From a virus, in the IMG/VR virus record IMGVR_UViG_3300009509_000031, positions 29,822 through 93,821 of that record: a stretch of 64,000 nt of DNA; one strand, given 5' to 3'. Position 1 is the stretch's first letter. Every line of letters begins with the position of its first letter. A program made the position numbers and the translations under genes. The notes under the pieces were generated by a model, which saw only the letters and a program-made list of their open reading frames with translations, was not told the DNA's origin and ran no database searches. Positions 18,192-62,707 of this stretch are shown one piece after another.

Positions 18192-19217
18192 TTAAGATTT
18201 GGGTGATGATGGTTTAACTAACCAAGATCCTGTAGATGGGGATTTAGATGATGTATCCGATGCAACAGGTTCTAACGTATCTTTTGGGGGTAGTGGTGGC
18301 GTTACTTTATCGACCACAAAAGAATCACCATCCGTTGTTTCAATAAGAGCTTTATTCTGTTCTGCAAGCAATGCTTTGTGTAATGCTTTATCCGGATCAT
18401 AGTCAGGTAACATTCCATATTCATGGGGTGCTAAATGAGTTTTTTGAGATTCAGCGTATACACCATCATCACGTTTTCTATAAATAGTATGTCGATACTT
18501 CCAATCGGGTACAGCTCTAACAATACCGAATTCATTTCTCAACGGCTTTTTTATGATGCGGGTATACGTGATGTTGGAATGAATAGCAGATCGGGATCCG
18601 AGTAAGGCGTGTCCTTGTGTTGCATCATCGATTGTTTCAACCAATTTCTGCAATTGAATGATCTCAGTAACCAGTTCACCCCGAATATCTTCCGCCTTAC
18701 CATCAATGGATTTACGATCGGCTTTCTTTTGTTCAATCACACCAAAGGTATGCCCCTTGTCCATAATCTTATCGTATATATCCGACATACCACGCAAGGC
18801 TTGAATAGCTGCATTGTACTGCTTCACATCGGGATCATTGATGTAACGTTCATACGTTTTCTGTAGCTTCTTTACAATACCCATCTGAAAGGCAGCATAT
18901 CGAATAAAGGTTTGTTGGGGTGTGGATTGGGCATAATGCCGAATCATATGATCGATAGCGGAATTGAGATTACGAGTTACCGCGTTTTGTGGAATCTGCA
19001 AATCTTCAGCAATCGCTGCAATCGTTTTACCCTCTGAATACATGGATAGGATTGCGTGTTGCCGCTTTCTAACGTAGGTTCGTTTTAACTGCTTATCTTC
19101 TTTAGATACGTTTTGAGTATTCCGAGTATTCTGTTTATGGACTTTGGCCGGCTTACGGGTTGAGACAACCTCTTTGACTTTTCGATTGGCTTTGAATCGG
19201 GGTTTCTTTTTAGCCAT
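18192..19217 (-). CDS. HTH protein, probable terminase small subunit
   Basis: Basic N-terminus, HTH (ILSMYSEGKTIAAIAEDLQIPQNAVTRNL) then helical oligomerisation-like region; no TerS-like gene is obvious next to terL. Confidence 0.5.
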   Translation of the reverse strand: MAKKKPRFKANRKVKEVVSTRKPAKVHKQNTRNTQNVSKEDKQLKRTYVRKRQHAILSMYSEGKTIAAIAEDLQIPQNAVTRNLNSAIDHMIRHYAQSTPQQTFIRYAAFQMGIVKKLQKTYERYINDPDVKQYNAAIQALRGMSDIYDKIMDKGHTFGVIEQKKADRKSIDGKAEDIRGELVTEIIQLQKLVETIDDATQGHALLGSRSAIHSNITYTRIIKKPLRNEFGIVRAVPDWKYRHTIYRKRDDGVYAESQKTHLAPHEYGMLPDYDPDKALHKALLAEQNKALIETTDGDSFVVDKVTPPLPPKDTLEPVASDTSSKSPSTGSWLVKPSSPKS

Positions 19218-26317: not shown

Positions 26318-26621
26318 CTAAAACACTCCTAATCACTTTAACTGCAGATAACGCTGAAGCTGTATTACTGTAAATAGCACAAGCCCTGCAACTAAAATTA
26401 ATCCAGTACCCGATACAAGCTACAAGCAAACAATCCGCGTATCTTGGACACTGCATATAACGATAAGACTCAGCTACATCTTCTGTTAGAAATACGGCAT
26501 CTAATTCAACTGGATTTGGCCGGATACCACAAACACACTCTAACCGTTGTTTTCTACGTTCAGCCTTAATACCTGCAGCATAGTATCTACGTTTAACCGT
26601 TCTATAGTAGCGTGAATCCAT
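26310..26621 (-). CDS. Cys-motif protein resembling a deltaproteobacterial family
   Basis: C-x2-Y-x2-CL-x6-W-x2-FSC-x2-C. Confidence 0.6.
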   Translation of the reverse strand: MDSRYYRTVKRRYYAAGIKAERRKQRLECVCGIRPNPVELDAVFLTEDVAESYRYMQCPRYADCLLVACIGYWINFSCRACAIYSNTASALSAVKVIRSVLDE

Positions 26622-27082
26622 CCCCTGGATCCCATCATCTTGTGAACGGTGGTTGTTGCATCCAATATGCCACGATAAAACCCATTCCTGTTATTGCGCC
26701 GAGTAACAACACGGTATCGATAACCCAAAGGGCATTGTTTGGATACCTGTTTTTCTGTCTTAGCATTCTCGCAAAAACCGTAAGGCCCGCGATCAAGTAC
26801 AACACAAATGCCGAGATCATACTTATTTGACCTAATCCTAACGACGGTACCAAAGGGCAATGTTCTATGAGCACATACGAGATCAAAAACTGTTGGTTTT
26901 GTTCGCCACTTACCAGCATATCTAGCATAAGGAACCGTCTTTGATCGCTTCCATGGCCGGTACCCCGATACAATCCCGGTTTCAATACGTGATCCTTCAA
27001 CAGTTTTCCAATCAAACGATAAGTGGGATATCGGAATCACCGGTGTTAGAAATAGTAAGCTTAGTTTTAGGATAAACGTCAT
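26540..27082 (-). CDS. RlpA-like double-psi beta-barrel lytic transglycosylase
   Basis: CAHRTLPFGTVVRI, VVLDRGPY, GILDAT; hydrophobic N-terminus from ATG 27082. Confidence 0.85.
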   Translation of the reverse strand: MTFILKLSLLFLTPVIPISHLSFDWKTVEGSRIETGIVSGYRPWKRSKTVPYARYAGKWRTKPTVFDLVCAHRTLPFGTVVRIRSNKYDLGICVVLDRGPYGFCENAKTEKQVSKQCPLGYRYRVVTRRNNRNGFYRGILDATTTVHKMMGSRGWIHATIERLNVDTMLQVLRLNVENNG

Positions 27083-27452
27083 AATGAACAACCGTTTCAA
27101 CACACAAATCTGCAATTGTATGTATGTAAAGACTTGCCGTAGAAAACGGCTTACAAGAAACAACATCCAACATAAATCGACGCCTATTAGGCCAGCCATG
27201 CAAGGCAATATGGCTTGTTGAAATTAGTGCTAATACACTAATACCGCCTTCATCTTCAAACGCTGTTCTGTTCAACTTTGACAGATCCTCTTTTACGTTA
27301 CTAACAATCAAATTAAGGATAGTCATACCTGATAGGCTAGCAATCCGATCCACGATAGAACTAAGGCGGCTAGAACTAGCCAAAACCCCCTTTTCTTCTC
27401 TTTTTACAATTCCATCAAGTTCAAAACGATAACGGATCGGATCGTTGTTCAT
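27012..27452 (-). CDS. speD: S-adenosylmethionine decarboxylase-like pyruvoyl proenzyme
   Basis: GGISVLALISTSHIALHGWP...LDVVSCKPF. Confidence 0.8.
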   Translation of the reverse strand: MNNDPIRYRFELDGIVKREEKGVLASSSRLSSIVDRIASLSGMTILNLIVSNVKEDLSKLNRTAFEDEGGISVLALISTSHIALHGWPNRRRFMLDVVSCKPFSTASLYIHTIADLCVETVVHYDVYPKTKLTISNTGDSDIPLIV

Positions 27453-27474: not shown

Positions 27475-28404
27475 CTAAGTTGGAACCAAAGTATCCCCTG
27501 TTGTGTTGCTTTCTGGCATAGGATAATCCCGCAACAGTACCAATTCCGTAAACGGATCCGTAATGCCGGTAACATACAACTTCTTTTCTTGTTGAAACTT
27601 AATTAACGCTCGTTTGCTTTCGTAACCAAATACACCATCTGCACCATACTTAGGCAGACAGTCAGGCTTCCACCTAAGCAAAGCCTGTTGCCAATCAAGA
27701 TCTGTTTTCAAATCTTGTTTAGCTGATTCCCGCCAAGAATCAATCCGAGTCATTAAAACATATCCGGGGCAACCTGCTTTACCAAAATGAGCATGATAAA
27801 AGTTACCCTCTGCACCGTAGTTAAACAACTCTGCTAACCACTGGCAGACCTTTGTGTGACCTTCAAGCTGTTTTACAGTTGGTCCTGTAGCGTAACCTTT
27901 ATAACCAGGTGCACTAAAGCCGCCCATTACTAACACGGCTACTAGGTGCAAGTTTTCATCACCGTCTGCTAAACCACCATAGGCTTGTGCGTATGTTCGA
28001 TCCAGAATGTTACCTGTAAGCAAAACAATCCCGTCTTTTGGAATACAGATCGGATATACCATTGTTGGCAACGGTTTACCTGGTGTGATGTGATTATTCA
28101 CACCTGTATGATAATTTGCGGTTGCAACCGGATCGTTATCGTTGCGTGATGCGTTATGATGCGTGCACTGGCCTAGAACTTCTGAAATTAGTCGTTTAGG
28201 CCATCTAAACCTATCCACCTTATATCTACTGTTAGCGGTAGGTATATCAGACCTAACATCCTTCATCCATCCTTCACTAACAGCGATCGTTATCGCGTTT
28301 TCAACAATATTCAAATCCTTGGTATACTGTTTTGCCCTATCTAACATTGCTTGATCCACCAGTCTTTCAAAATCCTTCCATGCAGTATTTACATACCTAG
28401 CCAT
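27475..28404 (-). CDS. Endolysin: N-acetylmuramoyl-L-alanine amidase with C-terminal peptidoglycan-binding domain
   Basis: THHNA and YHAHFGKAGCPG Zn ligands; ADGVFGYES...FQQEKKLYVTGI PG-binding motif. Confidence 0.85.
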   Translation of the reverse strand: MARYVNTAWKDFERLVDQAMLDRAKQYTKDLNIVENAITIAVSEGWMKDVRSDIPTANSRYKVDRFRWPKRLISEVLGQCTHHNASRNDNDPVATANYHTGVNNHITPGKPLPTMVYPICIPKDGIVLLTGNILDRTYAQAYGGLADGDENLHLVAVLVMGGFSAPGYKGYATGPTVKQLEGHTKVCQWLAELFNYGAEGNFYHAHFGKAGCPGYVLMTRIDSWRESAKQDLKTDLDWQQALLRWKPDCLPKYGADGVFGYESKRALIKFQQEKKLYVTGITDPFTELVLLRDYPMPESNTTGDTLVPT

Positions 28405-28416
28405 TAAGCACCAATG

Positions 28417-28764
28417 TTAGTCATCTGCAACAGTTTGCCCGTTCCTTGTTCGCTTAAACCGTCTGTTACCGTTATCTGTTTCACCTTTTGTTGAATCAGC
28501 AATTTCTAGCATCACTCGTGTTTTGTATTTTGCGCTCATAGCTTCCAGCAATACACGCAAGGCTTTTGCGATCCTGCCAGCCTTACCGATTACCTTTCCA
28601 GCATCACCGGTACCTGTTTTAACGGTTAAAATTACAGTACCACCGCCTTCACTTACTGTTTGCGATACAGAAACAGCATCCGGAGTATCAACCAATTCCA
28701 TCACAACATCTTTCAACAGCTCTCTCAACTTAAAGTCTTTAGACAACATGATAATTAACTCCAA
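28417..28764 (-). CDS. khpA: KH-domain RNA-binding protein (KhpA/YlqC/UPF0109 family)
   Basis: LVDTPDAVSV...DAGKVIGKAGRIAKALRVLL...RVMLEI with intact GxxG loop. Confidence 0.9.
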   Translation of the reverse strand: MELIIMLSKDFKLRELLKDVVMELVDTPDAVSVSQTVSEGGGTVILTVKTGTGDAGKVIGKAGRIAKALRVLLEAMSAKYKTRVMLEIADSTKGETDNGNRRFKRTRNGQTVADD

Positions 28765-28825
28765 TAGCTGATAACAGTATGTAATAAAGCAGCTGATTAT
28801 ACCATTTTAGAGCAAAAAACTAAAA

Positions 28826-29671
28826 TCAACGCGAATTAAAAAACGAATCTGTTAAAACAAAATCAACAAACCGCTTTGACAAATGAGGTAACCATACCGG
28901 TCTACTTGCTTCACCAAAAAACAGATCAACCGTTACTTCTTTTGTACAAGCAAACGGTCTGCTTATTGGTGCCAAAGGTTCATTGTTAGTTGTCCGTAAC
29001 AGTACCGATCGTAAATCCGGATTTAGCTGATCCAATTTAACAACACCATCCCTAACAGCCATTTCTGAATACAAGAGAGAGGCAAGTAACAACGCATCAG
29101 CAAGGTTACCACCAGGATCATTTTCAGCACTAAGCTTGATCCCGTACTTACTAAAGCACGCTTGCTGCATATCCACCTTTTCTGCCTTACCGTAACCAGT
29201 AACAGCAAGCTTTACAGACAACGGATCGTAAATCCTAAACGGGATCTCTTTATCCCAAAGCCCTTGTTTAATTGCTTCAACCAATCCGTGTATTTCATGC
29301 AAGCCCCTACTTCGTTTAGAAAAAGCGTATCCCTCAATTGCAACCGCAATCCTACATCCTGGAACCTTAAATGCGTAATCACAGATCACACTTAGTGTCC
29401 AATCGATCAACACCTTCATTCTGTATTGACTGTTAGACTCTGATCTGCCTGATGGTACTTTCATATAACTAAGCCACTGTGATTGACGCTTCTGAAGCTG
29501 CTTCTTATTTGTCCACCCATGTAAAAAATCAGGGTAGCCATCACGCAATACAGCGATTGCATGGCCGTTCAGTGATGGATCAATACCAACACAGATCTTA
29601 TTTGCTGCTTTAGTAACAGATATGGCCGGCTCAACAACAACAGATCTCAACCGCTTTGCATACTGCATCAA
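28826..29671 (-). CDS. RuvC-like Holliday junction resolvase
   Basis: VGIDPSL, AIEGYAF, P.SVKLAVTG.GKA.K, NLADALLLA. Confidence 0.85.
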   Translation of the reverse strand: MMQYAKRLRSVVVEPAISVTKAANKICVGIDPSLNGHAIAVLRDGYPDFLHGWTNKKQLQKRQSQWLSYMKVPSGRSESNSQYRMKVLIDWTLSVICDYAFKVPGCRIAVAIEGYAFSKRSRGLHEIHGLVEAIKQGLWDKEIPFRIYDPLSVKLAVTGYGKAEKVDMQQACFSKYGIKLSAENDPGGNLADALLLASLLYSEMAVRDGVVKLDQLNPDLRSVLLRTTNNEPLAPISRPFACTKEVTVDLFFGEASRPVWLPHLSKRFVDFVLTDSFFNSR

Positions 29672-37233: not shown

Positions 37234-37517
37234 ATTACCCTCTTTTTTGCTGACGGTGTGTTACCTTGCTTCCAAGGATTTGCCCCGTATTCTCTACACC
37301 AAGCAAAATGACATTTCCAACCACAAAACCCGCGTCTAACTTTGTTATCTGTTCTTGCGTATACAACATTAGTTAGACGTTCCCCACATTCAGAACAATA
37401 AACCAGGTATTCACCGGCGTTTTCTTTTTCCCTTGGAAGAGCCTTTCTTAGCCTTTTTGCGATCACTACTTTTGGCTTTTCGCTTCTTTTTTGGTTTTTC
37501 TTCTTCATCGTCATCAT
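37230..37517 (-). CDS. Zn-finger hypothetical protein
   Basis: CSEC...FCGWKC; stop overlaps exonuclease start; exact start uncertain. Confidence 0.5.
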   Translation of the reverse strand: MMTMKKKNQKRSEKPKVVIAKRLRKALPREKENAGEYLVYCSECGERLTNVVYARTDNKVRRGFCGWKCHFAWCREYGANPWKQGNTPSAKKRVM

Positions 37518-38469
37518 CAGCTAGATCATCGTCTTCATCAGTATCATCTTCATCATCCGATGAATCCCCGTCATCATCGTCATCATCAGAATCATCTTCA
37601 TCATCGGTACTATCATCGTCATCATCATCTAGATCATCACTATCTTCATCATCCTCATCAGACGTATCAGGATCATCAAACAACTCATCTTCATCAGAAT
37701 CGTTTTCAAAACCATCACCCTCATCATCAAACCCATCATCACCAGACAGATCCTCATCATCATCAAAATCATCTTCATCCGCATCACCTTTGATGAACTT
37801 TCGGATCGCGGTTCTTTGGGCTTTTTCACTGGCCGGCTGCACTGCTTTAATCGTATCTAGATCATTCAACGCTTCATACACATCATCAGTGATGTATTTA
37901 GCGATATTAATTGGATCTGAAAATTTAACAGACGGGTATCTAGTGGCCTTACCCTTGCCTTTTCTTTTGATTGCTACAATAACGGCAGCTTCTGGATCGC
38001 TAATATCGATCTTCTCATCAGTAACGTGATCAACAATCTGTTCAAAAACGTTACTACTAACCCCCAACAACTTTACAGGACCGCGAGACTTAATATCTTC
38101 TTTTCTGATTGCGTTCATAAAACCACGGCTTGACAACCTAAAGTTATCCGCGAAGTCTGAATCCCCCTTTTTCAGTGCTTTCTTCCGTTCCTTACAAATC
38201 AAACACGGTTTATCGTATCCAGAATTAGGTGGGCATACCAACCCCAATCCGTGTTGTTGAACTTCACGCCACAATACCCTGATCTCATCTGCCCATGGTG
38301 GACATATATAAAAATAATTCCAGCCAACTTTCAATTCATGGAACTCACCACCAGATCGATCCGCAAGTTCCTTTTGTTTCTTTGCTGCTTCATCAAAGTC
38401 AATACCGCGTCGTTTTCTCTTACTGCTACCCTTACTTTTTGATCCTGACTTATCCTTTTTCTTTGCCAT
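37411..38469 (-). CDS. Single-stranded DNA-binding protein (gp32-like) with long acidic tract and basic tail
   Basis: H..LVCP...CLIC Zn site; DISDPE...I.RKGKGK.TRY; Asp/Glu tract then Lys/Arg tail. Confidence 0.75.
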   Translation of the reverse strand: MAKKKDKSGSKSKGSSKRKRRGIDFDEAAKKQKELADRSGGEFHELKVGWNYFYICPPWADEIRVLWREVQQHGLGLVCPPNSGYDKPCLICKERKKALKKGDSDFADNFRLSSRGFMNAIRKEDIKSRGPVKLLGVSSNVFEQIVDHVTDEKIDISDPEAAVIVAIKRKGKGKATRYPSVKFSDPINIAKYITDDVYEALNDLDTIKAVQPASEKAQRTAIRKFIKGDADEDDFDDDEDLSGDDGFDDEGDGFENDSDEDELFDDPDTSDEDDEDSDDLDDDDDDSTDDEDDSDDDDDDGDSSDDEDDTDEDDDLADDDDEEEKPKKKRKAKSSDRKKAKKGSSKGKRKRR

Positions 38470-42780: not shown

Positions 42781-42867
42781 ACCTAATACTCCATTGAGCA
42801 CACTTGACAGAAAACAGATTGACCACGTTATTTAAAACCCGTCAAGTGTGCTCTAGCAGTGCTAGGT
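42781..42867 (-). promoter_or_regulatory. Conserved stem-loop H1 (RNase III-like processing site)
   Basis: ACCUAGCACU-GCUA-GAGCACACUUGAC...GUCAAGUGUGCUC-AAUGG-AGUAUUAGGU. Confidence 0.7.
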
Positions 42868-43764: not shown

Positions 43765-43821
43765 TGATTGCTCCATTGAACCAACCTGGTAACCTCACCA
43801 GGTTGGCTCTAGCAGCTATCA
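43765..43821 (-). promoter_or_regulatory. Conserved stem-loop H2
   Basis: UGAUAGCU-GCUA-GAGCCAACCUGGU...ACCAGGUUGGUUC-AAUGG-AGCAAUCA. Confidence 0.7.
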
Positions 43822-45249
43822 AACACCGTAAATCTTATCCTGCACCGTTCCTTGCATCAGTTGCCCAATTTCCCAAACTTGATCAGACCACTTGTTGATC
43901 GTGCTCTTGTAGCTTGAATTCGTAAGTACAGTATAAACCGTAAATCCCAGCTCTGTTTTAGCCGCCTTAAATGCTTCATCCCAGCTTGGATCCGTGTTGC
44001 AGTAACCGTCCGTTACAAGCACAACATCAGCTTGCTTAAACTCACCATCCCGCTTGATGATAGCAACCGCATCATCCAAAGCCGCTTGAAAATTTGTCCC
44101 GCCTGCAGTCCAGTGATCCAGCATATCCATTACCCGGTTAGTATCAACCTCTTTACCAGCCGGCAAATAATCAACCCGACTAACAGTGCTGTCAAAGAAC
44201 ACAACGCCAAAGCTACGCTTCTGAATTCTGGCAACTTCCAGCATTGCAAGCACCGTAGCTTTAGTCATAATCTCGTAAGGGTTCTGTGAACCGCTTGTGT
44301 CAACACAAAACACAATTGGCCCTTGCTGCTTTTCTTCTTTACCACTAAGTTTCAACTGCAGACAGTTCTTATCCGCGTATCTCTGATAGAACATCAGTTG
44401 TTCATCTTCGTTATCACTAACCAACAACATCAGTTCCGAACCCAATAGCCGGCTAATTTCATTCCCCGTTTCAATCGAGTCAACCTCAACCCGTGCATCT
44501 TCAGACTTGTCTTTTTGCTTCTGACAAGCCAAAGCCCGTTGCCTACCGGCTTCTTTAGCAATTTGCTGAAGCTTCTTATTCTGCTTCAACCGATTAGCGT
44601 GATCCCGGTATCCAAGTTGCTTCTGAACCGGTTCACCAGGTTCTGATCCCCATGATACGGATCGGATAGCTTCGCGTTCATTTTCGATCTGTTCCATGGA
44701 TTCCTTGGCCGCATTTCTAACAGCTACCCGGATCCCAACAGGATCGATCCCGGCTGCAAGCTCTTCCTGTTCTTTCAATGCAGCCTGAAAGCTTTCCCTT
44801 GCTTCGTTCAGCTCTTTTTCAACCGGTACACCTTGTTCTTTCAGCTCTTCCAGTGTTTCAACTTCTTCTTTCAGCTTATCAACATCACGATTACTTTCCC
44901 TATGAACCAACTTATCAGCAATAGCGTTTGACAAAGCGGTTACTGCGTTACCAGCTGCAACCTCATCACCTTCAGTGTACTGTTGCAGGGATTTAAATTC
45001 CTGCAGTGCTGTCATTTCATTCAAAGCGGTTTGTTCAACTTCATATCCGGGCTTAGGTGGTTCTTCAAGCTTTTTTGTTTGTGGATCCAGCAAGCAAGAA
45101 AAGCCTTCCTGCATCACCTTAGACCAACGGGTTGACTTATTAAAGCCCTTGTTTTCTGCCTTACGAATTCCAGCATTCTGCTTTTTTTCCAGCTTATACA
45201 TCAAAGCCGGCCACCTTTTAACGTCATAAAGAATGTTTTCATCTGCCAT
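43819..45249 (-). CDS. VWA (MIDAS) domain protein, ViaA-like
   Basis: GPIVFCVDTSGS, GGTNF, VLVTDG; helical N-terminal half. Confidence 0.88.
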   Translation of the reverse strand: MADENILYDVKRWPALMYKLEKKQNAGIRKAENKGFNKSTRWSKVMQEGFSCLLDPQTKKLEEPPKPGYEVEQTALNEMTALQEFKSLQQYTEGDEVAAGNAVTALSNAIADKLVHRESNRDVDKLKEEVETLEELKEQGVPVEKELNEARESFQAALKEQEELAAGIDPVGIRVAVRNAAKESMEQIENEREAIRSVSWGSEPGEPVQKQLGYRDHANRLKQNKKLQQIAKEAGRQRALACQKQKDKSEDARVEVDSIETGNEISRLLGSELMLLVSDNEDEQLMFYQRYADKNCLQLKLSGKEEKQQGPIVFCVDTSGSQNPYEIMTKATVLAMLEVARIQKRSFGVVFFDSTVSRVDYLPAGKEVDTNRVMDMLDHWTAGGTNFQAALDDAVAIIKRDGEFKQADVVLVTDGYCNTDPSWDEAFKAAKTELGFTVYTVLTNSSYKSTINKWSDQVWEIGQLMQGTVQDKIYGV

Positions 45250-45277
45250 GGTTTCGCCTTTCGTTTTTGTTTATAGG

Positions 45278-45330
45278 TAATTGCTCTATTGAACCAACCT
45301 ATTGTGGTAGGTTGGCTCTAACAGCAATTA
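45278..45330 (-). promoter_or_regulatory. Conserved stem-loop H3
   Basis: UAAUUGCU-GUUA-GAGCCAACCUA...UAGGUUGGUUC-AAUAG-AGCAAUUA. Confidence 0.7.
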
Positions 45331-46440
45331 CTTTCGTTTCTTACTGCTTTTCTTTTTACTGCTAGCATTTCGAGCAATTTGAACAATAGTTGACTGTGGC
45401 TTAACAGGTTCTTCAACTTCAACAACAACCTTTTCAACTTCAACATCTTCAACAGTAGCCGGTTCTTCAACTTCAACAACAACCTTTTCTTTAGCTGCTT
45501 TTTGTTCTTCTGAACCCTTGTAATACCCTTCCGTAATCATCGCAGTAACAGCCTTTTTACACGTTTCCAGCCCTTTCAAGATCTGATCTGCGTTGAACCC
45601 CAACATTTCGGCGTACATCTTGCCACGTTCCTGCAGATCCTTGAATTCTTCAATCCGATTTTCCAACCGATCCTTACGTGGTGCTTTGGTTTTGAATTCT
45701 TCAATCTCTGCTTTCAGTGCTGCTAGTTCGCCCTGTAGTGCTGATTTACAATCTTTAGCCAGATCCGGTTGCTCCCCCCAAACATCCGGCAAACTCAAGT
45801 GGCTATCACCAGGGATTGCATCAAGAACCGCTTGCAGCTTGTTCAAAATGGTTCTGTACTGTTCCGGCACAAAGTACACTGCACCGGTTGGCCGGATATT
45901 CACAGCTTTCATACGCTTTAGATTACGGGTTAAGAGCCGGCTAAAATCTTGCACTGTTAGGTGGCAGTACATTGTATCAAACAAATCCCTAACCTTAGCG
46001 GCTACCTGGTACCCGTCTGTACCGTTATCTTTGCTACATACAACTGAACACGTTTCTTTGTCCAGTCTAACCTTTGCTTCACATTGGTGGGCCAGATCCT
46101 CTTGTACCTTCAACCGATCTTCACGAACAACCCCATACACCAAGTGATGATCCGTTTCATTGATTGGTCGAATTAGATAGCCGGTGTTTTCGCCTTTTTT
46201 GTTCAAGTTGCGGGATACTTCTTTAATTGTCTTACGAAAAGCAACCGTTGATCGCTGTTCTGGTGGCCCCCAATTTTCCCAGCTAAGATCCTGTTGCGCG
46301 AACAGCTCTTTAAGATCATCCCTGTGAATCATTGCACCAGTAAGCCACCAATAAGCTAAGCATCCTTTCCGTGTCCAACCCAACTTTGCCAGTTTCTTGT
46401 GTTCTGCGTTCAAGTCCCGAACAAACTTTGTTTCCGCCAT
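45328..46440 (-). CDS. DUF6744-like protein
   Basis: G.L.YW..., AFRK, IRPTGAVYFVP motif, C-terminal coiled coil; family name from recall. Confidence 0.6.
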   Translation of the reverse strand: MAETKFVRDLNAEHKKLAKLGWTRKGCLAYWWLTGAMIHRDDLKELFAQQDLSWENWGPPEQRSTVAFRKTIKEVSRNLNKKGENTGYLIRPINETDHHLVYGVVREDRLKVQEDLAHQCEAKVRLDKETCSVVCSKDNGTDGYQVAAKVRDLFDTMYCHLTVQDFSRLLTRNLKRMKAVNIRPTGAVYFVPEQYRTILNKLQAVLDAIPGDSHLSLPDVWGEQPDLAKDCKSALQGELAALKAEIEEFKTKAPRKDRLENRIEEFKDLQERGKMYAEMLGFNADQILKGLETCKKAVTAMITEGYYKGSEEQKAAKEKVVVEVEEPATVEDVEVEKVVVEVEEPVKPQSTIVQIARNASSKKKSSKKRK

Positions 46441-46468
46441 TGTTTCCGCCTTTCTTTTGTGGTTAGTA

Positions 46469-46514
46469 GCTGTTCTGTCAAGCCAACTGATTACAGCTAG
46501 CTTGACAGAACAGC
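46469..46514 (-). promoter_or_regulatory. 21-bp intergenic hairpin H5
   Basis: GCUGUUCUGUCAAGCUAGCUG-UAAU-CAGUUGGCUUGACAGAACAGC; G-U pairs on the minus strand. Confidence 0.65.
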
Positions 46515-46538
46515 CCGGTTAACGGGCTGTTCATACTG

Positions 46539-47741
46539 TTAACCAATAATCTTGTTCATCAAATTGGCTACATCCATCCGAAGATGGTTGATCTTTTCGA
46601 TCGTGTCTTTGGCTACATGATTAGGCTTACCGTTTGCCAAAGTCTCAATTTTAGAAGTAGCTTTTCTCAACCGTGTCATCACTTCTTTAATCTGAACCAG
46701 TACCTTAGCACCGTCTGCATCAACAACATTCTGGTTCAAGGGAAGTGCCCTAACTGCTTCCACGCAAGCATCAAGTGATTCTTGGCAAAGTGCTGCAAGC
46801 GGGTTTGCAATTTCTCCGACAACCTTTGAAATAGCTGCAAGCTGTTCTGGCTTGTTCCAAAGGCAATGCGGAAGAAACAACAAATCGTCTTCAGTAACTT
46901 CATTCCGCCCATGTACAAAAGCGTGTGCTTGAAGAATGTACAGAATTTTTTCCCACTTACGATCCGATACTTCAAGCCGCAGATTAGGATCGTTATACAG
47001 AGCTTTCTTGATACTAATTAAAACATCAATAATTTCTTCCGGAACATCAACAGAATCCGCGTTAGCCTGCAATGTATGCAACTCATCAAGCGTTATCGTA
47101 CAACCGGCGGTTTTGATTTTGCTAAAGCCGGCTCTTTCTGACATCAGAAACCGCTTAAAATTGTCATCAGATTTGATGTATCCAGACCATTTACGAATTG
47201 GAAAGCGATCATAAAAGGCAGCTAATGCCTTTTCATCTTCAGGAAGCTCATTAGAACACCCAACAACAAGCTCTGTTGGGGTATCAACCATCCCATCCGT
47301 TCCGTTTTGAAACTGATGTTCATTAATCAACGTTAGCATTGCGTTATTGATTGAGCTGTTACCCTTAAAAATCTCGTCCAAAAACAAGATGTGTGCTTCT
47401 GGTGCCATTCCTTTAGTGATTCGTACAAATTCACCATCACGAAATTTTGCCGGATTAACCGGGCCGAAAATTTCATTAGGCTCCGTTGTTTTCGATAGCA
47501 GGTAGTAAAACCAATCTGCATCAGTAACAGCCTTACAAAACAACTTGCTAAGCATTGTTTTTGCTGCACCCGGCTTGCCAAGAATTAGTAGGTTTTCCCG
47601 TGCAATCAGTGCAACAGCCAAACACAGAACCTCTTGTTCCTTTTCAACAGCAATGGTAGACAGCAGATCCAACAGTCTGTTAAACCTAGATCGTGCAGAT
47701 TCGTTTGTACCGGGCTGCTTCACCTTTTTCTTGTTTGCCAT
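46539..47741 (-). CDS. MoxR/RavA-family AAA+ ATPase
   Basis: GKPGAAKT, LFLDEIFKG, SNELP, AFYDRF, SDRKW. Confidence 0.92.
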   Translation of the reverse strand: MANKKKVKQPGTNESARSRFNRLLDLLSTIAVEKEQEVLCLAVALIARENLLILGKPGAAKTMLSKLFCKAVTDADWFYYLLSKTTEPNEIFGPVNPAKFRDGEFVRITKGMAPEAHILFLDEIFKGNSSINNAMLTLINEHQFQNGTDGMVDTPTELVVGCSNELPEDEKALAAFYDRFPIRKWSGYIKSDDNFKRFLMSERAGFSKIKTAGCTITLDELHTLQANADSVDVPEEIIDVLISIKKALYNDPNLRLEVSDRKWEKILYILQAHAFVHGRNEVTEDDLLFLPHCLWNKPEQLAAISKVVGEIANPLAALCQESLDACVEAVRALPLNQNVVDADGAKVLVQIKEVMTRLRKATSKIETLANGKPNHVAKDTIEKINHLRMDVANLMNKIIG

Positions 47742-47764
47742 TGGTTCGCCTTTCTTGTATTTAA

Positions 47765-47974
47765 TTAGAGAATTCCAGCACACTCCAAAACGCCCCGAAT
47801 CAGCTCTTTTGCATTACGCTTTGTAAGTTCAATCCTAGCTTCTGTCCCTTGGTTACTGCACACATGCAACATAAAAAAGCTACTACCATCACCCAACCAA
47901 GTTTGTGTGATCCAAGCCTTGCCCCTTTTCTTCTTATCCTTGTGCAGCTTTCGCATGTTCTCGCCTTTTAGCAT
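47765..47974 (-). CDS. Hypothetical early protein with duplicated RBS/start
   Basis: AAAGGCGAGAACATGC occurs twice in tandem, in frame. Confidence 0.65.
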   Translation of the reverse strand: MLKGENMRKLHKDKKKRGKAWITQTWLGDGSSFFMLHVCSNQGTEARIELTKRNAKELIRGVLECAGIL

Positions 47975-48274: not shown

Positions 48275-48332
48275 TTTGAATGCTCCATTGAACCAACCCG
48301 GCATTGCCGGGTTAGCTCTAGCAGGATTCAAA
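48275..48332 (-). promoter_or_regulatory. Conserved stem-loop H4
   Basis: UUUGAAUCCU-GCUA-GAGCUAACCCGGC...GCCGGGUUGGUUC-AAUGG-AGCAUUCAAA. Confidence 0.7.
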
Positions 48333-55402: not shown

Positions 55403-57907
55403 CTAATAAACCTCTCTTCCAAGAGTAACCGCCACAACTTCGTTATCAGAAACTTCCCACAAGTCTAGCCACATTTGAATTGCTGTTGGATCATCCAAAT
55501 TATCTTGATAAGCTTGTGGTCTAAGCAACCCATTAGCGCCGTTAAATGTAATAGTGCTTAGCGTTTTTGTTGCCGGTGCAGACATATCAGATGTGTAATA
55601 CCGGATTGTCTGATGGCCAGTAATAGCAAAGTAAAAGTTAGTATAAAGCGGATTACCGCTTGAAAACTGTGGACCAAAACCGGTATCAACCTTTTCAGTT
55701 GGGTTCGTACCGTCATCAACAACAAGCCAATAGTTTTGGTTACCGTGTACGTTGTTATCAAGTTCAAACTTGATACGGTAGTTACCAGCAACATCATCAA
55801 AACCGATCCAATTTGTGCGATCAGATAGCAATACATTATCAATTGCCATACGTGCCTTAAACACAAGATACAACTTTGATGTATCAAGCCAAAAAATAGA
55901 AGGGCCTTCAAGCTGCACAGATTCCGTTGCAGCCGTGTTAGCAAACCTAGCTGCACCACCATGGGCCATTTGAGCAACACCAACTAATGATCCCTGTTGT
56001 GTTACAGTAGCCGATCCTGTTGCGGTAACCTTGTACTGTTTAGGGCACGTTGTGTTACTAGTCCAACCTGTTGGTGATGATTGGTTATAATGAAAATCAT
56101 CTTTAAAATGATGGGGCGTTGCTCTAATACCATACGGCTCTAGGATTCCAACAATTTGCCCGGTTGGATCATTAATCTCTTCAAGCAAATCACCGGAACC
56201 TGTAAACCAATCAAGTGCAGTTGTCCCATTTATACCGCTAGCAACTAAACCAAGTCCAACAGCACCGCTAGCTTGTACCTGCATATCTCGTGTAGGGGCA
56301 ATAATCAGCTGTTGAAATGTTTTAAGCGCACCCTCTTTATTAATCCATGTTGCCACTTTTGGTGCAGCTTCATAAGACTCATAAAATTTGATGTGATCAG
56401 CTGCATCACCATAAAAGATTGCTGCAGCGTAACTATCATCACCACCATTACCAGATGGTGGGCCTAGTGACTCATTAGGACCATGAAAAGCCGTTCCACC
56501 AGCACCATGAATTATCGCATTAGATGCACTTCCCCAAAATTTTGGATTAGTGATCTGTTGGACTCTTAGAATAGTTACGTTGCCAGTATCCCCGGCACCA
56601 AAAGCAGGAGTTCCGCCATCAAGCTCTCTTAGCTGTAACGTTGTTGCGGCTACTACTAGAATCGTATACAACCCATTAGGCACTGTTGAAAACCCTTGCA
56701 ACCAAGCAAGGTCCATTCTGATATTAACGTTAGATGCAGCCCAATCAACGGATCCAGTTCTTGTTACAATATCCGGTGATGTTGTTGAACACGGGTTATC
56801 GATAATTAGATTACCTGTACTATGGGTTAATGGTACAACATGCAATTGCCCTGCTTCGGAACCATCCCGTTCATCAGATATCGTTAGAACACCAACACCA
56901 CCGTTTTCTGTTCCGCCTTTTCGATCAACCCGGAGTGTTGTAAACATATCATCTCCGGATCCGGTTCTGCTTTTCAGTTCAACCGCGCCACTATCAACAT
57001 TAACGATCCGCCCACTACCGCTGCCCGTTGCCCCGTCATATGCTCGATCAAGCGTATTGATAAACACAGGTACTTGACCGCTTGTATCAAACACAGTTGG
57101 CGTTGCACTTGGACCGTTACCGGTAATCTCACCAATAAACGCATAATCTGAATCAGTGCTTAGATCCTTATTTGCCTTATTACGCCAAGTAACACCTTCA
57201 ACAAACACCCTATATTCAGTTGCGATCTGCGATGGTGGCCCACCACTTGTATCTTGGCCTAGTGGCCCTAACGCACCACTATAAGGAATATCCACATAGT
57301 TATTAGGGGAAGCATACGCGATCGTACCTTCATAGTAAGCAGCTGTTGCAGCCGGACCTTCAATGGGAGAAACAGGATCAACCAACCAAACACGGCAAGT
57401 TCTACCACTATGATCTTCGTTCGCACCTGTTACAGAATTTACCCGAACCCTGATATATGTTGTCTGATCATCAACATCATCGGGATAATCAACTTCCCCA
57501 TACGTTTGTTTCAAACTAGGATATTCTGGATCACCAGTTCTAGGGTTCAGCTCAATCCCATCAGGAACTTCAGCATACTTGATCCCAACACTGTACGTTG
57601 TTCCTGTATTGTTCTCAAATGGGATCGCTGAAGTGATACCGGCACCATTCAACAAACTCATATCAATGATCTGCCCACCACCTACCACTACCCGCCATGC
57701 TTGTGATATATCAAGTTCAAAAGTGTCATTAGCAACAGAGTTAATCAAAATAGGATCCGAATCCAATACGCCACTGATCCCAATAAAGATACCGGCTGTT
57801 ACTTCTTCAATCGTCCTAAGCAAGAAATCAAGAAAGTTATCCTTAATGCCCGTCAAGCTTAGAAGTCTCTTAGGGTAGATATTGATTTTACGATCTGCGG
57901 TAGGCAT
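55403..57907 (-). CDS. Tail fibre / receptor-binding-like protein
   Basis: 834 aa, G/T/S/D-rich, last structural gene after baseplate. Confidence 0.65.
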   Translation of the reverse strand: MPTADRKINIYPKRLLSLTGIKDNFLDFLLRTIEEVTAGIFIGISGVLDSDPILINSVANDTFELDISQAWRVVVGGGQIIDMSLLNGAGITSAIPFENNTGTTYSVGIKYAEVPDGIELNPRTGDPEYPSLKQTYGEVDYPDDVDDQTTYIRVRVNSVTGANEDHSGRTCRVWLVDPVSPIEGPAATAAYYEGTIAYASPNNYVDIPYSGALGPLGQDTSGGPPSQIATEYRVFVEGVTWRNKANKDLSTDSDYAFIGEITGNGPSATPTVFDTSGQVPVFINTLDRAYDGATGSGSGRIVNVDSGAVELKSRTGSGDDMFTTLRVDRKGGTENGGVGVLTISDERDGSEAGQLHVVPLTHSTGNLIIDNPCSTTSPDIVTRTGSVDWAASNVNIRMDLAWLQGFSTVPNGLYTILVVAATTLQLRELDGGTPAFGAGDTGNVTILRVQQITNPKFWGSASNAIIHGAGGTAFHGPNESLGPPSGNGGDDSYAAAIFYGDAADHIKFYESYEAAPKVATWINKEGALKTFQQLIIAPTRDMQVQASGAVGLGLVASGINGTTALDWFTGSGDLLEEINDPTGQIVGILEPYGIRATPHHFKDDFHYNQSSPTGWTSNTTCPKQYKVTATGSATVTQQGSLVGVAQMAHGGAARFANTAATESVQLEGPSIFWLDTSKLYLVFKARMAIDNVLLSDRTNWIGFDDVAGNYRIKFELDNNVHGNQNYWLVVDDGTNPTEKVDTGFGPQFSSGNPLYTNFYFAITGHQTIRYYTSDMSAPATKTLSTITFNGANGLLRPQAYQDNLDDPTAIQMWLDLWEVSDNEVVAVTLGREVY

Positions 57908-58116
57908 TACTTATCCCTCCAGATAACTTCCGTTTTACCACCATGGCTGTGAATCGTTTCCATATCTGTAAACGATCCATATACAACAATAGACGGATGA
58001 GCACTAAGCCACCTTAAAACAGTTGTACCATCCGTGAACACAATACCCTCTGCAATGACACCAACACCACTTGTACCTGTTTCATCTTCAATACGGTTTA
58101 GGTTAAAGCGTTTCAT
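57907..58116 (-). CDS. Small phage hypothetical protein
   Basis: D.TGTSG.G.IAEG..F.DG...LRW...IH.HGG.T motif. Confidence 0.75.
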   Translation of the reverse strand: MKRFNLNRIEDETGTSGVGVIAEGIVFTDGTTVLRWLSAHPSIVVYGSFTDMETIHSHGGKTEVIWRDK

Positions 58117-59645
58117 GGGTTCGGCCCAATTCTTTCAATCTCTGTAGGCAATACGTTAACTTCAACAAGTTGAAGATCGCTATCACCTGTTAATGCGTAT
58201 ACACCAACTCTACCGGCAGAAAACGAACCTGCAGAATCTAGCTCATCAAGTTCTGTTTCCCCATTTACCTTAACGCGGATCCGTGTACCGCTACCCTCTG
58301 TAAGTGCATCAACACGGATCACGTCTTGTACACCTTGTTTTAGATAAGACAAACTAACGGTACTGCCGATCTGTGTTGGCGTTCCTGTTACAACTTTCCA
58401 CAGTTCAATTTCTTTTGCATCGTAATCAACCAATACATAATAGTGGTTATTAGCATCAGTTCCCATAAAAGTTAGATGCAACGCACTATCCGCATCAAGC
58501 GGTGTTATCTTCCAGGCAGTAACCTGATCAGCCCAATATATTTGATTTTGGTTGTTACTCTGAATCCTGGCACCCTCTAACAAATTACATGGGCCACCAG
58601 GTTTAGGAACACTAACAAGCGATGCAGTATTTACATCCCACTGATCTAGATCACCAGGTGTTTCAAATCGATCCAAAAAATTGATGTACACAATATCGAT
58701 CCGTTCACCTAGTGGCCGTACAGTGTCGCCGCCCATTAAAAACGAAAGTAGCGATCGATTAAGCACACCTGTTAAACTAATTACGGTTGCCGATCCACTA
58801 CCAGTATCAATCACAGTTTCATTTGGGATAAATCTTCCGTATATTGATCGCAACGTTAACGATCCTGCAGCAACAGAAGTAATCACACCATAGGCACCTG
58901 AAACGGATCCGATTGCTGTTTGCCCTACAGTAAACGAGCTTGTTTCGTTTTTAATAAGCAGGGTACCAACACCTTCATCAACTAATCTTACTTCGGTCAA
59001 GTATTCTTCCATATGACCAAACAAAATATATTCAACGTACCCCGTATGCGGTGCAAGACGCGTTGTTACGTACCCAATTTTTGTTTCAGGAACAACACGA
59101 TCAATTTCAAACAACTTTTCATTTGGTGGCCTAGTTGGATCACTAGTGATCAACAACCAACGAAAATCGTGGGCATTAGCAAAGTCAATCGGCAGATCCG
59201 TTAAACGAAACGAAAACTGATCAATCTCTGTAACCCTTCCAAGCGTTCCAGAGTACTTCTCACTAATAAACCCAATCGCATACGGATCAAGATCTTCAAG
59301 CTCTTCTGTTATACACGTTTGATCTTCCTGCATACGAAAATCAAACCAATTTGCAATCCGGAATCTATTACCGGTTACCATCCGAATTGCGTTATCAATT
59401 GACCCTAGCTCTGTTGGTTTTTCATTCCAATATGGAACAGCAAGCGACAAAATACGCCGAAGTTCTTCTGTTGTTGCATCAAATGACAGATCAGCTGTAA
59501 ACCCTAACAACGGTTTTTGGTACGGCAACCATCTAGCATCAATATTATCAATGTCCATAAGCGTTGGAAGCTCAGAACACCGATCATAGATCAAGTCTTC
59601 CCAAGCATAATCAATTTGCCTGGTGAGTATTTCTAGCTTTCCCAT
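58113..59645 (-). CDS. Baseplate wedge protein (P2 gpI-like N-terminus) with C-terminal beta-sandwich domain
   Basis: DIDNIDARWLPY...LGF...EELRRILSLAVPYW..K.T...I..AI pattern. Confidence 0.65.
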   Translation of the reverse strand: MGKLEILTRQIDYAWEDLIYDRCSELPTLMDIDNIDARWLPYQKPLLGFTADLSFDATTEELRRILSLAVPYWNEKPTELGSIDNAIRMVTGNRFRIANWFDFRMQEDQTCITEELEDLDPYAIGFISEKYSGTLGRVTEIDQFSFRLTDLPIDFANAHDFRWLLITSDPTRPPNEKLFEIDRVVPETKIGYVTTRLAPHTGYVEYILFGHMEEYLTEVRLVDEGVGTLLIKNETSSFTVGQTAIGSVSGAYGVITSVAAGSLTLRSIYGRFIPNETVIDTGSGSATVISLTGVLNRSLLSFLMGGDTVRPLGERIDIVYINFLDRFETPGDLDQWDVNTASLVSVPKPGGPCNLLEGARIQSNNQNQIYWADQVTAWKITPLDADSALHLTFMGTDANNHYYVLVDYDAKEIELWKVVTGTPTQIGSTVSLSYLKQGVQDVIRVDALTEGSGTRIRVKVNGETELDELDSAGSFSAGRVGVYALTGDSDLQLVEVNVLPTEIERIGPNP

Positions 59646-60751
59646 TAGCTCTCTTCATCCTTTTTTCTAATGCTAGCCAGAATCATAGGATAGATCTTAA
59701 ACCCAATATTAGGACTTGATCCAAACGTCCAAACAGCTCTAGCAGACGAAGCACTTATGTTTTCAACGTATGCACTAACAGAAACTTCGTCCCTATAATA
59801 CACGGATCGTGTTAACGGTGTTAGCTCAAACCTATAACCTATTTCGGCACCAGTTAACGCTGATACAGCAACAGCCCAAACTGAAGTAACAGCAGAACTG
59901 TTCTGATACACAATTGATCCGTCTATCCATATAATCGTTGCGGCTAAATTAATGCCACTTAGATCAATAGCCTTGAAAATAATAGGCGAATTTTTCGGAA
60001 TCCCGCTATCATCATCAACAGGATAAATCGGGATAATTTGTGGCGGGGAACTTCCTGTTTCAAATGAATACTCTGTACAGCTAATAAACGTATTTGTGTA
60101 ATCAAACACGGTTACTTCAACTGTAATCAGCGTATCTGCTGGAAGAAGTGCCGGCGGAATTAGCGTGTAATCAAAACCGTAAGCTGCATTTGCAGGTTTA
60201 CTAACAACCCATCCGTTTTGTGCAGAGCCATTTTTATACACAACAACAAAACCGCTACCTGAATCAACCCGTATTACACTGTAGCTATCACGCAACCCTG
60301 TAGTGTCTGCAATACCACTATCATTTGCGATATTCGCTCTAATTTCTGTAAGAGGTTCTCTGTCACAAGCCGGGATAAGGATTGTTGTAGCTTGATCAAC
60401 ACCCGTTTCACTCGGTTGCGGATCAAGCCTAGCAGAATCAAGATAAGGATCCGTATTAACCGGCACTGCAAGTAACGGACTTAAAATGTCCGATTGTGTA
60501 ACTAAAGCATCATCGCGCCAAGAATCATCAATACTAGTCCTGTCTAGTAAATCGTATTCAACGTGATCAACGATATCAGTATATAAAAGCTCTTCACGCC
60601 AAGAATCGTCAATACTGGTTCGATCCATTACCTCAATGCCATCACACGGATTAAAACCAGCATCATACACATTGTTATGCCAGTCATCATCAAGACTGGT
60701 TCGATCAATAGCTTCAGTAGAAACAAACGGCGCTTTTGGTGTCCAAGTCAT
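59645..60751 (-). CDS. Structural protein with N-terminal DRTS(L/I)DD.W repeats and Ig-like domains
   Basis: Three DRTSxDDxW repeats; P...TGV....I and P......IP....I Ig-like patterns. Confidence 0.6.
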   Translation of the reverse strand: MTWTPKAPFVSTEAIDRTSLDDDWHNNVYDAGFNPCDGIEVMDRTSIDDSWREELLYTDIVDHVEYDLLDRTSIDDSWRDDALVTQSDILSPLLAVPVNTDPYLDSARLDPQPSETGVDQATTILIPACDREPLTEIRANIANDSGIADTTGLRDSYSVIRVDSGSGFVVVYKNGSAQNGWVVSKPANAAYGFDYTLIPPALLPADTLITVEVTVFDYTNTFISCTEYSFETGSSPPQIIPIYPVDDDSGIPKNSPIIFKAIDLSGINLAATIIWIDGSIVYQNSSAVTSVWAVAVSALTGAEIGYRFELTPLTRSVYYRDEVSVSAYVENISASSARAVWTFGSSPNIGFKIYPMILASIRKKDEES

Positions 60752-60760
60752 TTTAGATCA

Positions 60761-62707
60761 CTAAAACTGTGGAGTAACACCGGGCCATTCAAACGCGATA
60801 CCGCTAACCATATGAAAGAAATCTTTTGCCCCGTTAGCACTTTCATCAAATGCCGCCCTAAGTGACAAGTTGCTTCTTACGTAATAATGCCCAACAAGCC
60901 TACCAAGTAGCGCATAAAGGTTACTTGTATTTTCTGGATCAGCATATAACCATGTTCCAGCTATTAGATCTTGTCTGGAAAACACTTGGCTCTTTCTTGC
61001 GTTTTGTTCTCTGCTTACCCATGCAGTTAAAGACTCGCTTGCATTTTTATACGAATAATCCGCCATTCTAGTTTCAACTTGACCACCAGACGTTTCACAC
61101 CATACGTATCCCCTGCCAACAACAGTTGCAAGATCAGTTCTCCTAGACATCTCGGATGAACTACAAACAGACGTACCATTACCCATTAAAGCAATTTTTT
61201 CAGTTGTCACCATACTTGAATCGGCGGGTTCAATGTGGCCAACCATCACCCCGTTATCAAGGATTCCAGTGGTGTTACGAAAAGCAAGTGTTACATACTC
61301 ACCAGCATCATCACCAAAAGCGTAATACGTGCCATCTCCCAAGTAATTTGTTCCGATCCTAACTGGTCCAAGTATTTTACCAGAACCGAAAGACCAATCG
61401 GCGTTTACTGATACCCTGATCTCAAAACTCTTATCTCCGGCATATGGGAAATTACAACCGAGGTATTCGCCATTAACCATAAGAACTTCAATTTCCCATC
61501 CGTTTGTATGCGGTGTTCTACATCGAAAAAGACTATCAGATATAACCGCCATTGTTCCGCCAGCCATACCTGTAAACGAAAATCCAACAGATTCAATTGC
61601 CTTATTTCCGTGTTCACCACCTAATGTATTAGAAACATTTACGGTAGGTGTTGAAGAACTGGCATCTAACAAAACCGCTGAATCAACTTGACCAGCGATC
61701 CAAGCGGCCACTTCAGTTGCATCATCGATATCGGGATCAGCTACGTTATCAAATACGCCGTGTGACTGTGTTAGATTTGGTGCTGTAAGATTTGAAGTAC
61801 CTTCTAAACCTAATTCTGTCCAAGCAGTTGAACCTGAATACGTCAACTGCATTTCATTGCGATCCGCAGATGGCGGATCTTGTGGTCTACCCCATACACC
61901 GTAATTTTGTACACGCCAAGTAAGCCGCTTTCCATACGATGAAGCATATCCCCTACCACCAGATTGATAACAACACGTTTCCCCTGCAGCCGTATTAATT
62001 TGAGACACAATAGACGAAATACTAAGCGGGTTTGATCCTGTAAACGTACAAGACTTACTAACACCACCAACAGAAAAATTTAACGTTTTACCGACTAATG
62101 TATTATTTGGATCAACATCAGCAGTTGCTGTAACACCACCACGCCATTGATTAGGGGTATATCCGCCGGGTGATATGGTAGAAAAAATTAAAACCTTTGC
62201 GTCATCGATATGGCTACCGCCATCTACTCTAATCCAATCACCATCGGTGATTGATGTAGCCGCCTTACCTGTAATCGTTCCTGTTGCTGCCGTTGCTGCA
62301 GCATCAATAACCCACCAATCAACACCTGTTGTTTGAACCGGGTACTCTGTAGCGCCGGATCTAAAGTCAACAGTAACCGTCGTTGAGCTGATAAACGCCG
62401 TTATTTTGTATATACCGGCATTAGCACGATTACTATCAGCAATAACGATCCAATCACCTACCATTCCCGAAGTAAACGATCCGGCTACCGTATCACGAAA
62501 ATTCTTATCAGATCCGGAAATATTAAATTCACCGTTTGTACCGGCTACTGTACTTGATAGCGTACCTGCGCCTTCAGTCCCATCAACAAAATTTGTAAAT
62601 CCACAAATCTTTGTTAGAAAAAAAGCAAGGCACTTAAAGTAAAACTCAATACCGGTTCCATATGCTGGAACTGGGTTATTGATCTCTCTTAGCCAACAAG
62701 TAGACAT
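60761..62707 (-). CDS. Virion structural protein, paralogue of 62707-63978
   Basis: Shared NAGIY.I, DF...E(Y/F)P...TG..WW and ADP.N..NLY..LGRL.GHY motifs. Confidence 0.7.
   Translation of the reverse strand: MSTCWLREINNPVPAYGTGIEFYFKCLAFFLTKICGFTNFVDGTEGAGTLSSTVAGTNGEFNISGSDKNFRDTVAGSFTSGMVGDWIVIADSNRANAGIYKITAFISSTTVTVDFRSGATEYPVQTTGVDWWVIDAAATAATGTITGKAATSITDGDWIRVDGGSHIDDAKVLIFSTISPGGYTPNQWRGGVTATADVDPNNTLVGKTLNFSVGGVSKSCTFTGSNPLSISSIVSQINTAAGETCCYQSGGRGYASSYGKRLTWRVQNYGVWGRPQDPPSADRNEMQLTYSGSTAWTELGLEGTSNLTAPNLTQSHGVFDNVADPDIDDATEVAAWIAGQVDSAVLLDASSSTPTVNVSNTLGGEHGNKAIESVGFSFTGMAGGTMAVISDSLFRCRTPHTNGWEIEVLMVNGEYLGCNFPYAGDKSFEIRVSVNADWSFGSGKILGPVRIGTNYLGDGTYYAFGDDAGEYVTLAFRNTTGILDNGVMVGHIEPADSSMVTTEKIALMGNGTSVCSSSEMSRRTDLATVVGRGYVWCETSGGQVETRMADYSYKNASESLTAWVSREQNARKSQVFSRQDLIAGTWLYADPENTSNLYALLGRLVGHYYVRSNLSLRAAFDESANGAKDFFHMVSGIAFEWPGVTPQF

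Follow-up and report, generated by a model that had tools for sequence, protein, structure and literature searches.

The window analysed here, a 64,000-nt stretch of viral DNA, corresponds to bases 29822–93821 of a 93,821-bp IMG/VR virus record, which has direct terminal repeats (DTR) and is rated 100% complete by CheckV. All genes in the window lie on the minus strand, and the G+C content is approximately 42%. A gene encoding a KhpA-like KH protein, hereafter KH, is flanked upstream by a gene for a RuvC-like Holliday-junction resolvase (28826–29671, minus strand; phrog_159, E = 1.8e-22; PF02075, E = 7.8e-5) and downstream by a gene for a peptidoglycan hydrolase (27475–28404, minus strand). 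KH is present in the list of open reading frames as 28417–28764 (minus strand). Because the TTG codon at 28764 overlaps the Shine-Dalgarno sequence, an ATG at 28749 is preceded by GGAG and 9 nt, and a relative that is 82% identical (P0002) likewise begins with MLSKDF, the product of the gene most likely consists of 110 residues (28417–28749, minus strand, stop codon included), and the TTG start is less likely.

The KH protein matches the Pfam family PF13083 (KH_KhpA-B) over the entire length of the model (positions 1–73 of 73; E = 3.6e-17; 62.5 bits against a cut-off of 32.1), and the same family was retrieved, with 62.8 bits, when the whole record was scanned. The AlphaFold2 model, obtained from a 28-sequence alignment, has a mean pLDDT of 81.7, with values of 87–96 over most of the KH domain. 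This domain, which spans residues 1–85 (28495–28749, minus strand), features a helix (residues 2–19), two strands (27–32 and 38–45), two further helices (50–54 and 56–73) and a final strand (78–85), which is the order of a type II KH domain. The top PDB matches of the model in Foldseek are the KH domains of KhpB (2pt7_G and 9lri_A), uS3 and Era, and only uncharacterised proteins match it in the viral structure library. A profile built from the clade of KH relatives matches the solved KhpA structure 7xqc (E = 1.3e-9) and, weakly, the KH domain of ribosomal protein uS3. KH is a true, full-length member of the KhpA family and is made up of a type II KH domain plus a short basic tail that is disordered; the earlier note, made from the letters of this DNA, had correctly recognized a full-length KhpA/YlqC-type protein in a phage, and the HMM search that it proposed bears this out.

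Two other features reported in that note were found as described. An extended GxxIGxxG motif, the predicted nucleic-acid-binding loop, is intact as GKVIGKAG at residues 51–58 (28576–28599, minus strand). Mutagenesis has revealed that RNA binding by KhpA needs this extended motif and, in particular, a basic first residue in the second GxxG (PMC13015501). The corresponding residue is either K or R in 14 of 14 clade members. The extra basic C-terminal tail comprises residues 86–110 (28420–28494, minus strand), carries a net charge of +2 and is predicted to be disordered (pLDDT of approximately 50–55, no secondary structure). Tails with a net charge of at least +2 are found in 13 of 14 clade members, as opposed to 1 of 25 cellular KhpA proteins and 7 of 54 other viral KH proteins. 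The KH protein is stand-alone and contains a single KH domain; it owes its length of 110 residues to the 25-residue tail, and lengths range from 86 to 131 residues within the clade. Residue L67 aligns with I61 of Streptococcus pneumoniae KhpA, a residue in helix alpha-3 that is required for the formation of both homodimers and heterodimers (10.1101/435529), and either L or I is found at this position in every clade member aligned.

The origin of KH was investigated by searching 5.8 billion proteins for relatives. The search retrieved a tight group of proteins (56–82% identity, 89–131 residues), followed by a gap in score, from 90 to 58 bits, that separates them from cellular KhpA proteins of 76–80 residues. 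In a tree of 93 KH proteins (84 columns), including 14 clade members and 25 cellular sequences, the 14 members form one branch (SH-aLRT 95) that is separate from the 25 cellular sequences, although the deeper forks of the tree are not settled. The nearest cellular proteins exhibit approximately 45–55% identity over approximately 70% of the KH protein. Three features mark the clade: two residues are inserted in the first beta hairpin (SEGGxT), the tail is basic, and helix alpha-3 contains LLEA in place of the VVKA or LLKV of cellular proteins. A pattern scan of 185,579 prokaryote species, each represented by one genome, found zero clade members. Separation from cellular KhpA and absence from these genomes indicate that KH is an old phage resident belonging to a phage-specific clade, and not a fresh host capture. 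The comparison with cellular KhpA that had been suggested thus resolved a monophyletic phage clade, and recent acquisition from a host as an auxiliary gene was rejected, as the clade is monophyletic, absent from the 185,579 species genomes and syntenic across phages with proteins that are just 35–65% identical.

KH is also well preserved within the clade. Its identity to four relatives ranges from 51 to 64%, and in the same comparison only the RecA-like protein is more conserved. Lower values were obtained for the RuvC-like protein (34–47%), the hydrolase (44–48%), the methylase (44–52%) and SbcC (38–42%), and SbcD is also less conserved than KH. Synonymous sites are saturated in most pairs; in the three pairs with unsaturated dS, dN/dS values are 0.10, 0.22 and 0.32. 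These values indicate that KH is under purifying selection. Relaxed selection, which would have spoken against a role for the protein, was not seen in the three measurable pairs, and the possibility that KH is a pseudogene or a gene under relaxed selection was rejected on the basis of both the identity comparison and the dN/dS values.

A 76-nt gap (28750–28825, minus strand) separates the ATG of KH from the stop codon of the RuvC-like gene (28826). It contains the Shine-Dalgarno sequence (GGAG) and the motif TGGTATAAT, and may host an internal promoter. The motif, reported earlier as an extended -10 element, does exist, and it maps to 28796–28804 (minus strand), one base off the coordinates first given. 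Its significance did not hold up. Chance predicts 3.06 copies of TGNTATAAT in the window, which contains 4, a number that 35 of 100 shuffled sequences also reach; a consensus promoter scan of the window listed nothing at 28796–28804; and the motif is absent from the RuvC-KH gaps of relatives, which measure approximately 6–67 nt. The extended -10 was consequently rejected as evidence of a separate KH promoter, being found at chance frequency, not conserved and not listed in the promoter scan. In this phage the sequence may still act as an internal promoter.

The genomic context of KH was compared across six loci, namely the window and five IMG/VR contigs that carry clade members: two contigs with DTR, G001 (95,166 bp) and G004 (103,083 bp), and three fragments of 47.6 kb (G002), 20.6 kb and 15.1 kb. 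The order RuvC-like gene, KH, peptidoglycan hydrolase gene is conserved in all six. An ortholog of the RuvC-like gene is found directly upstream of KH in each locus, and genes encoding RecA-like, SbcD, SbcC and ParB/methylase proteins lie further upstream where the contig reaches that far. KH closes a recombination module (RecA-like, SbcCD, RuvC-like), a position that argues against an RNA-binding role.

This position raises the possibility that KH is a single-stranded DNA (ssDNA)-binding accessory of the RuvC-like nuclease, or else of SbcCD or the RecA-like protein, acting, ahead of packaging, on phage DNA that is branched or single-stranded. The constant presence of the RuvC-like gene upstream of KH (6/6 loci), at distances as short as approximately 6 nt, is consistent with such a role, as is the arrangement of a second viral KH clade found in small phage contigs (L066, L067, L076, L079, L080 and L099), in which KH is followed by an optional HNH gene, a ParB-N/DNA-methylase gene and TerS. 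The site just upstream of packaging genes is a frequent place of late regulators. KH domains can bind ssDNA as well as RNA (PMC11261784), and an SSB of the PF00436 type was not found in the three complete genomes. The phage nevertheless possesses a dedicated SSB gene adjoining PolA (37411–38469; phrog_1192, E = 5.8e-19), so KH is not needed as a replication SSB, and the idea that KH is itself the phage SSB is weakened. Moreover, the KhpA/KhpB family has been characterised so far as RNA-binding, and KH is coupled to the downstream hydrolase gene at least as tightly as to the RuvC-like gene. On balance, we consider a role as an ssDNA-binding accessory quite unlikely.

The earlier note was right in placing KH directly before the endolysin gene, since the hydrolase gene at 27475–28404 begins 12 nt after the KH stop codon. 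The hydrolase, an Amidase_2-like protein with a PG_binding_1 domain, features the latter at the C-terminus according to Pfam and matches endolysin families in PHROGs. Its catalytic domain gets no score in Pfam; the ESM Atlas groups the protein with Amidase_2 and PG_binding_1 clusters, and its neighbours in the Atlas come from Bacteroidota, Actinomycetota, Chloroflexota and Bacillota. Orthologs of this hydrolase follow KH in five of the six loci. The exception is L005, in the 103-kb relative, where a non-orthologous Extensin-like_C (peptidase-like) protein (L005:10274–10906, plus strand) replaces the Amidase_2-type hydrolase in the same place. The adjacency of KH and a hydrolase gene has thus outlived a gene replacement. 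The two genes are very closely spaced: in L004 and L027 the hydrolase start codon overlaps the stop codon of KH (ATGA), in L005 it follows immediately (TAAATG), and in the window 12 nt lie between them. Two genes follow the hydrolase gene in the window (26540–27452, minus strand): one is AdoMet-decarboxylase-like (PF02675, E = 8e-13) and the other RlpA/DPBB-like, with a weak Pfam match (E = 0.066). Both the AdoMet-decarboxylase-like (SpeD) and the RlpA-like gene are found in L002, only SpeD is found in L003, and neither is present in L004 or L005.

In phage lambda, the resolvase gene is followed by a regulator gene, Q, and then by the lysis genes. By positional analogy, KH could be regarded as a late-gene antiterminator; this interpretation was not adopted, as the 12 nt between KH and the hydrolase gene leave no room for a promoter or a terminator.

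In bacteria, the KhpA/KhpB regulon includes cell elongation, cell division and the control of peptidoglycan hydrolases. The constant association with a hydrolase gene, which follows KH in 6/6 loci and is non-orthologous in L005, may also be read in a different way: KH would heterodimerise with the KhpB (Jag/EloR) of the host via helix alpha-3, displace host KhpA, re-aim or disable the KhpA/KhpB regulon and thereby prepare the cell wall for lysis. Several observations fit this scheme. AdoMet-decarboxylase-like and RlpA-like genes come next in the window and in L002, an aliphatic residue is retained at the position equivalent to I61, and the phages have no R3H partner of their own, as an R3H (KhpB-type) domain is encoded in none of the three complete phage genomes. 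Across species, heterodimerisation of KhpA with KhpB is more robust than homodimerisation (PMC13015501), and loss of the EloR/KhpA complex alters the requirement for the elongasome (10.1101/435529). Other data point the opposite way. The clade is old and, at approximately 45–55% identity over approximately 70% of the protein, too divergent from cellular KhpA to be a recent mimic; a Glu residue in alpha-3 is invariant in the clade at a position where the aligned cellular proteins mostly have Lys; and SpeD and RlpA have been lost in several relatives that kept KH. Adjacency of phage genes, in addition, often mirrors timing and not function. We regard takeover of host KhpB as unlikely.

The window also contains stable hairpins located in intergenic regions at 42781–42867, 43765–43821, 45278–45330 and 48275–48332 (minus strand), with fold z-scores of -5.6 to -7.5 relative to shuffled sequences. 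The four hairpins share conserved single-stranded internal loops (CUGCUAGAGC ... UCAAUGGAGC), and no known RNA family was identified in the window by Rfam. According to the earlier note, KH may be a protein partner of phage structured RNAs (the hairpins, an anti-SD RNA and boxA), with which it would form a post-transcriptional control system. In favour of this proposal, the hairpins are a genuine, stable family, its internal loops are conserved, and a covariance model found, besides the four copies in the window, two hairpins in G001 (L019 and L021; G001:16402–16453 and 18896–18948), the closest complete relative, at a distance upstream of KH similar to that observed in the window. The model, built from four near-identical copies in the window, may miss diverged hairpins. 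It found none in the complete genome G004 or in the 47.6-kb G002, both of which carry KH and cover the region 14–20 kb upstream of it, and the small fragment G003 likewise yielded no hairpin. Hairpins and KH therefore co-occur in two of the four KH-bearing genomes that cover the region. This distribution, recorded with a four-copy model, is close to the patchy one that had been named as evidence against the partnership. KH sits 14–20 kb from the hairpins, in a separate module, and is tied to them by no sequence or structural evidence. KH is thus kept where hairpins were not detected, which weakens the partnership, although the model may be too narrow to recognise all copies. We hold the dedicated RNA-partner role to be very unlikely. 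Thus, the identification of the gene stands, and the phage RNA control system built upon it, with hairpins in half of the KH-bearing genomes covering the region (2/4), does not.

The phage that carries KH has no close relative among cultured phages. Its DNA had zero matches among 50,697 GenBank phage records, and its terminase (TerL) is at most 26% identical to that of any cultured phage, with no cultured relative found. The lack of a DNA match and the low similarity of the terminase indicate that the phage is a member of a new family with genomes of approximately 95–100 kb. The record encodes terminase, portal, PolA, helicase and primase-helicase proteins, as well as SbcCD-like proteins, a ParB-N/DNA-methylase fusion, a RuvC-like resolvase, a 5'-3' exonuclease and an SSB. 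An RNA polymerase was not recognised within the window. Three genes in a row in the early region (43819–47783, minus strand), with hairpins between them, encode a MoxR-type AAA ATPase (bpMoxR, E = 1.7e-51), a DUF6744 protein and a VWA-domain protein; the MoxR-VWA set is similar to bacterial conflict systems, yet is phage-borne. The promoter-proximal end of the window (55403–63978, minus strand) is occupied by five successive large open reading frames of 834, 510, 368, 648 and 423 residues. The five have zero matches in Pfam, and a comparison of the 834-, 510-, 648- and 423-residue products with PHROGs yielded a single weak match, of the 510-residue product to phrog_358.

KhpA-like genes are not limited to this phage family. 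One strict pattern identified them in at least 96 contigs that IMG/VR lists as viral. The earlier statement that khpA is normally a chromosomal gene hence needs to be qualified, since KhpA-like genes recur in viruses on this scale. Contamination by host flanking DNA is an unlikely source of the matches, as the frequent neighbours in the 96-contig set are phage-like or auxiliary genes, and among the frequent neighbour clusters that were annotated, none is ribosomal or similar to rpsP, rimM or trmD. A tblastn search of GenBank phages retrieved 8 records, all less than 45% identical, including the Tunturiibacter jumbo phage Tunturi_5, whose gp147 is annotated as hypothetical. In PHROGs, no matching family was found with 28 phage and cellular KhpA sequences, none of which scored better than E = 0.003, and among the papers searched we found none describing a phage KhpA.

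In addition to the clade associated with ParB-N/DNA-methylase genes, a separate marine clade was found in contigs of 35–316 kb (L033–L035, L038, L041, L046, L048, L051, L054, L068, L072, L073, L082 and L090), in which KH is flanked by Hsp20, HU, ThyX, GroEL and M16-peptidase genes; the 316-kb contig is 94% complete according to CheckV. When the clade profile was compared with 1.84 billion representative proteins, 7,665 matches were obtained, many of which are 90–120 residues long and carry tails. Some high-scoring matches are tandem KH-KH proteins of approximately 190–210 residues (P0129, P0130, P0133, P0138, P0141, P0143 and others). In P0125, a clade member is fused to a C-terminal zinc-ribbon-like tail (CxxC...CxxC).

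Taken together, we lean, by a modest measure, towards KH being a phage-adapted, probably dimeric single-stranded RNA-binding protein of the KhpA family that is co-expressed with the endolysin. By analogy with cellular KhpA, the protein would bind approximately 4 nt of single-stranded RNA in the cleft beside the GxxG loop. The conserved aliphatic residue suggests that two KH molecules could pair in an antiparallel fashion via helix alpha-3, so that the dimer would read two short motifs, and the basic tail may add non-specific affinity for nucleic acids, as in other RNA chaperones. Gene order suggests that KH would be made at middle to late times together with the endolysin. KH would then act without a phage-encoded KhpB on either phage or host transcripts; structured RNAs from the early region are conceivable but unsupported targets. 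In Campylobacter jejuni, RNA targeting by KhpA depends mostly on KhpB (10.64898/2026.10.12.757534); given this dependence, a stand-alone phage KhpA may need a host partner. Another proposal, that KH is a long-kept KhpA core gene, translationally coupled to the endolysin gene, which either times late and lysis expression or seizes the KhpB wall network of the host, seems rather improbable. If it were true, in the form of coupled late timing or of KhpB takeover, the phage would encode a global RNA-binding protein of an undescribed kind.

Conservation across the six loci, together with the signs of selection, places KH among the core genes of the new family of phages with genomes of approximately 95–100 kb. 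Along with the at least 96 viral contigs carrying similar genes, it suggests that phages carry a neglected group of RNA-binding (or ssDNA-binding) factors, the functions of which are inferred, and the fixed pairing with an endolysin gene offers a handle on late expression, lysis timing or control of the host cell-wall regulon. Other virus-encoded KhpA-like genes, such as Tunturi_5 gp147 and those of the 96 or more contigs, similarly encode small, stand-alone and uncharacterised proteins of the KH_KhpA type; they are, in contrast, less than 46% identical to KH, belong to other clades, are found in other contexts and mostly lack the basic tail.

In many bacteria without Hfq and ProQ, KhpA and KhpB are now regarded as the principal global RNA-binding proteins. 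[quoted passage not shown] KhpB, however, also contains Jag-N and R3H domains, and neither was found in KH or elsewhere in the phage. Bacterial KhpA (YlqC, UPF0109, PF13083), known from S. pneumoniae, Clostridioides difficile, C. jejuni and Fusobacterium nucleatum and solved as 7xqc, is the closest known counterpart. Cellular KhpA is a small stand-alone protein of approximately 75–80 residues, the gene of which lies near rpsP, rimM and trmD, in the order rpsP-khpA-rimM-trmD. The phage proteins, by contrast, form a clade of their own with approximately 45–55% identity to the cellular ones, and their genes have RuvC-like and hydrolase genes as neighbours. They feature the two-residue SEGGxT insertion, have LLEA where alpha-3 of cellular KhpA has VVKA, and end in a disordered, basic tail, 6–25 residues long, that is missing from cellular KhpA; no KhpB partner is encoded by the phage. 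Despite these differences, KH and bacterial KhpA have in common a single type II KH domain that matches PF13083 over its full length, a GxxIGxxG loop whose first variable residue is basic and, in alpha-3, an aliphatic side chain at the dimer position.
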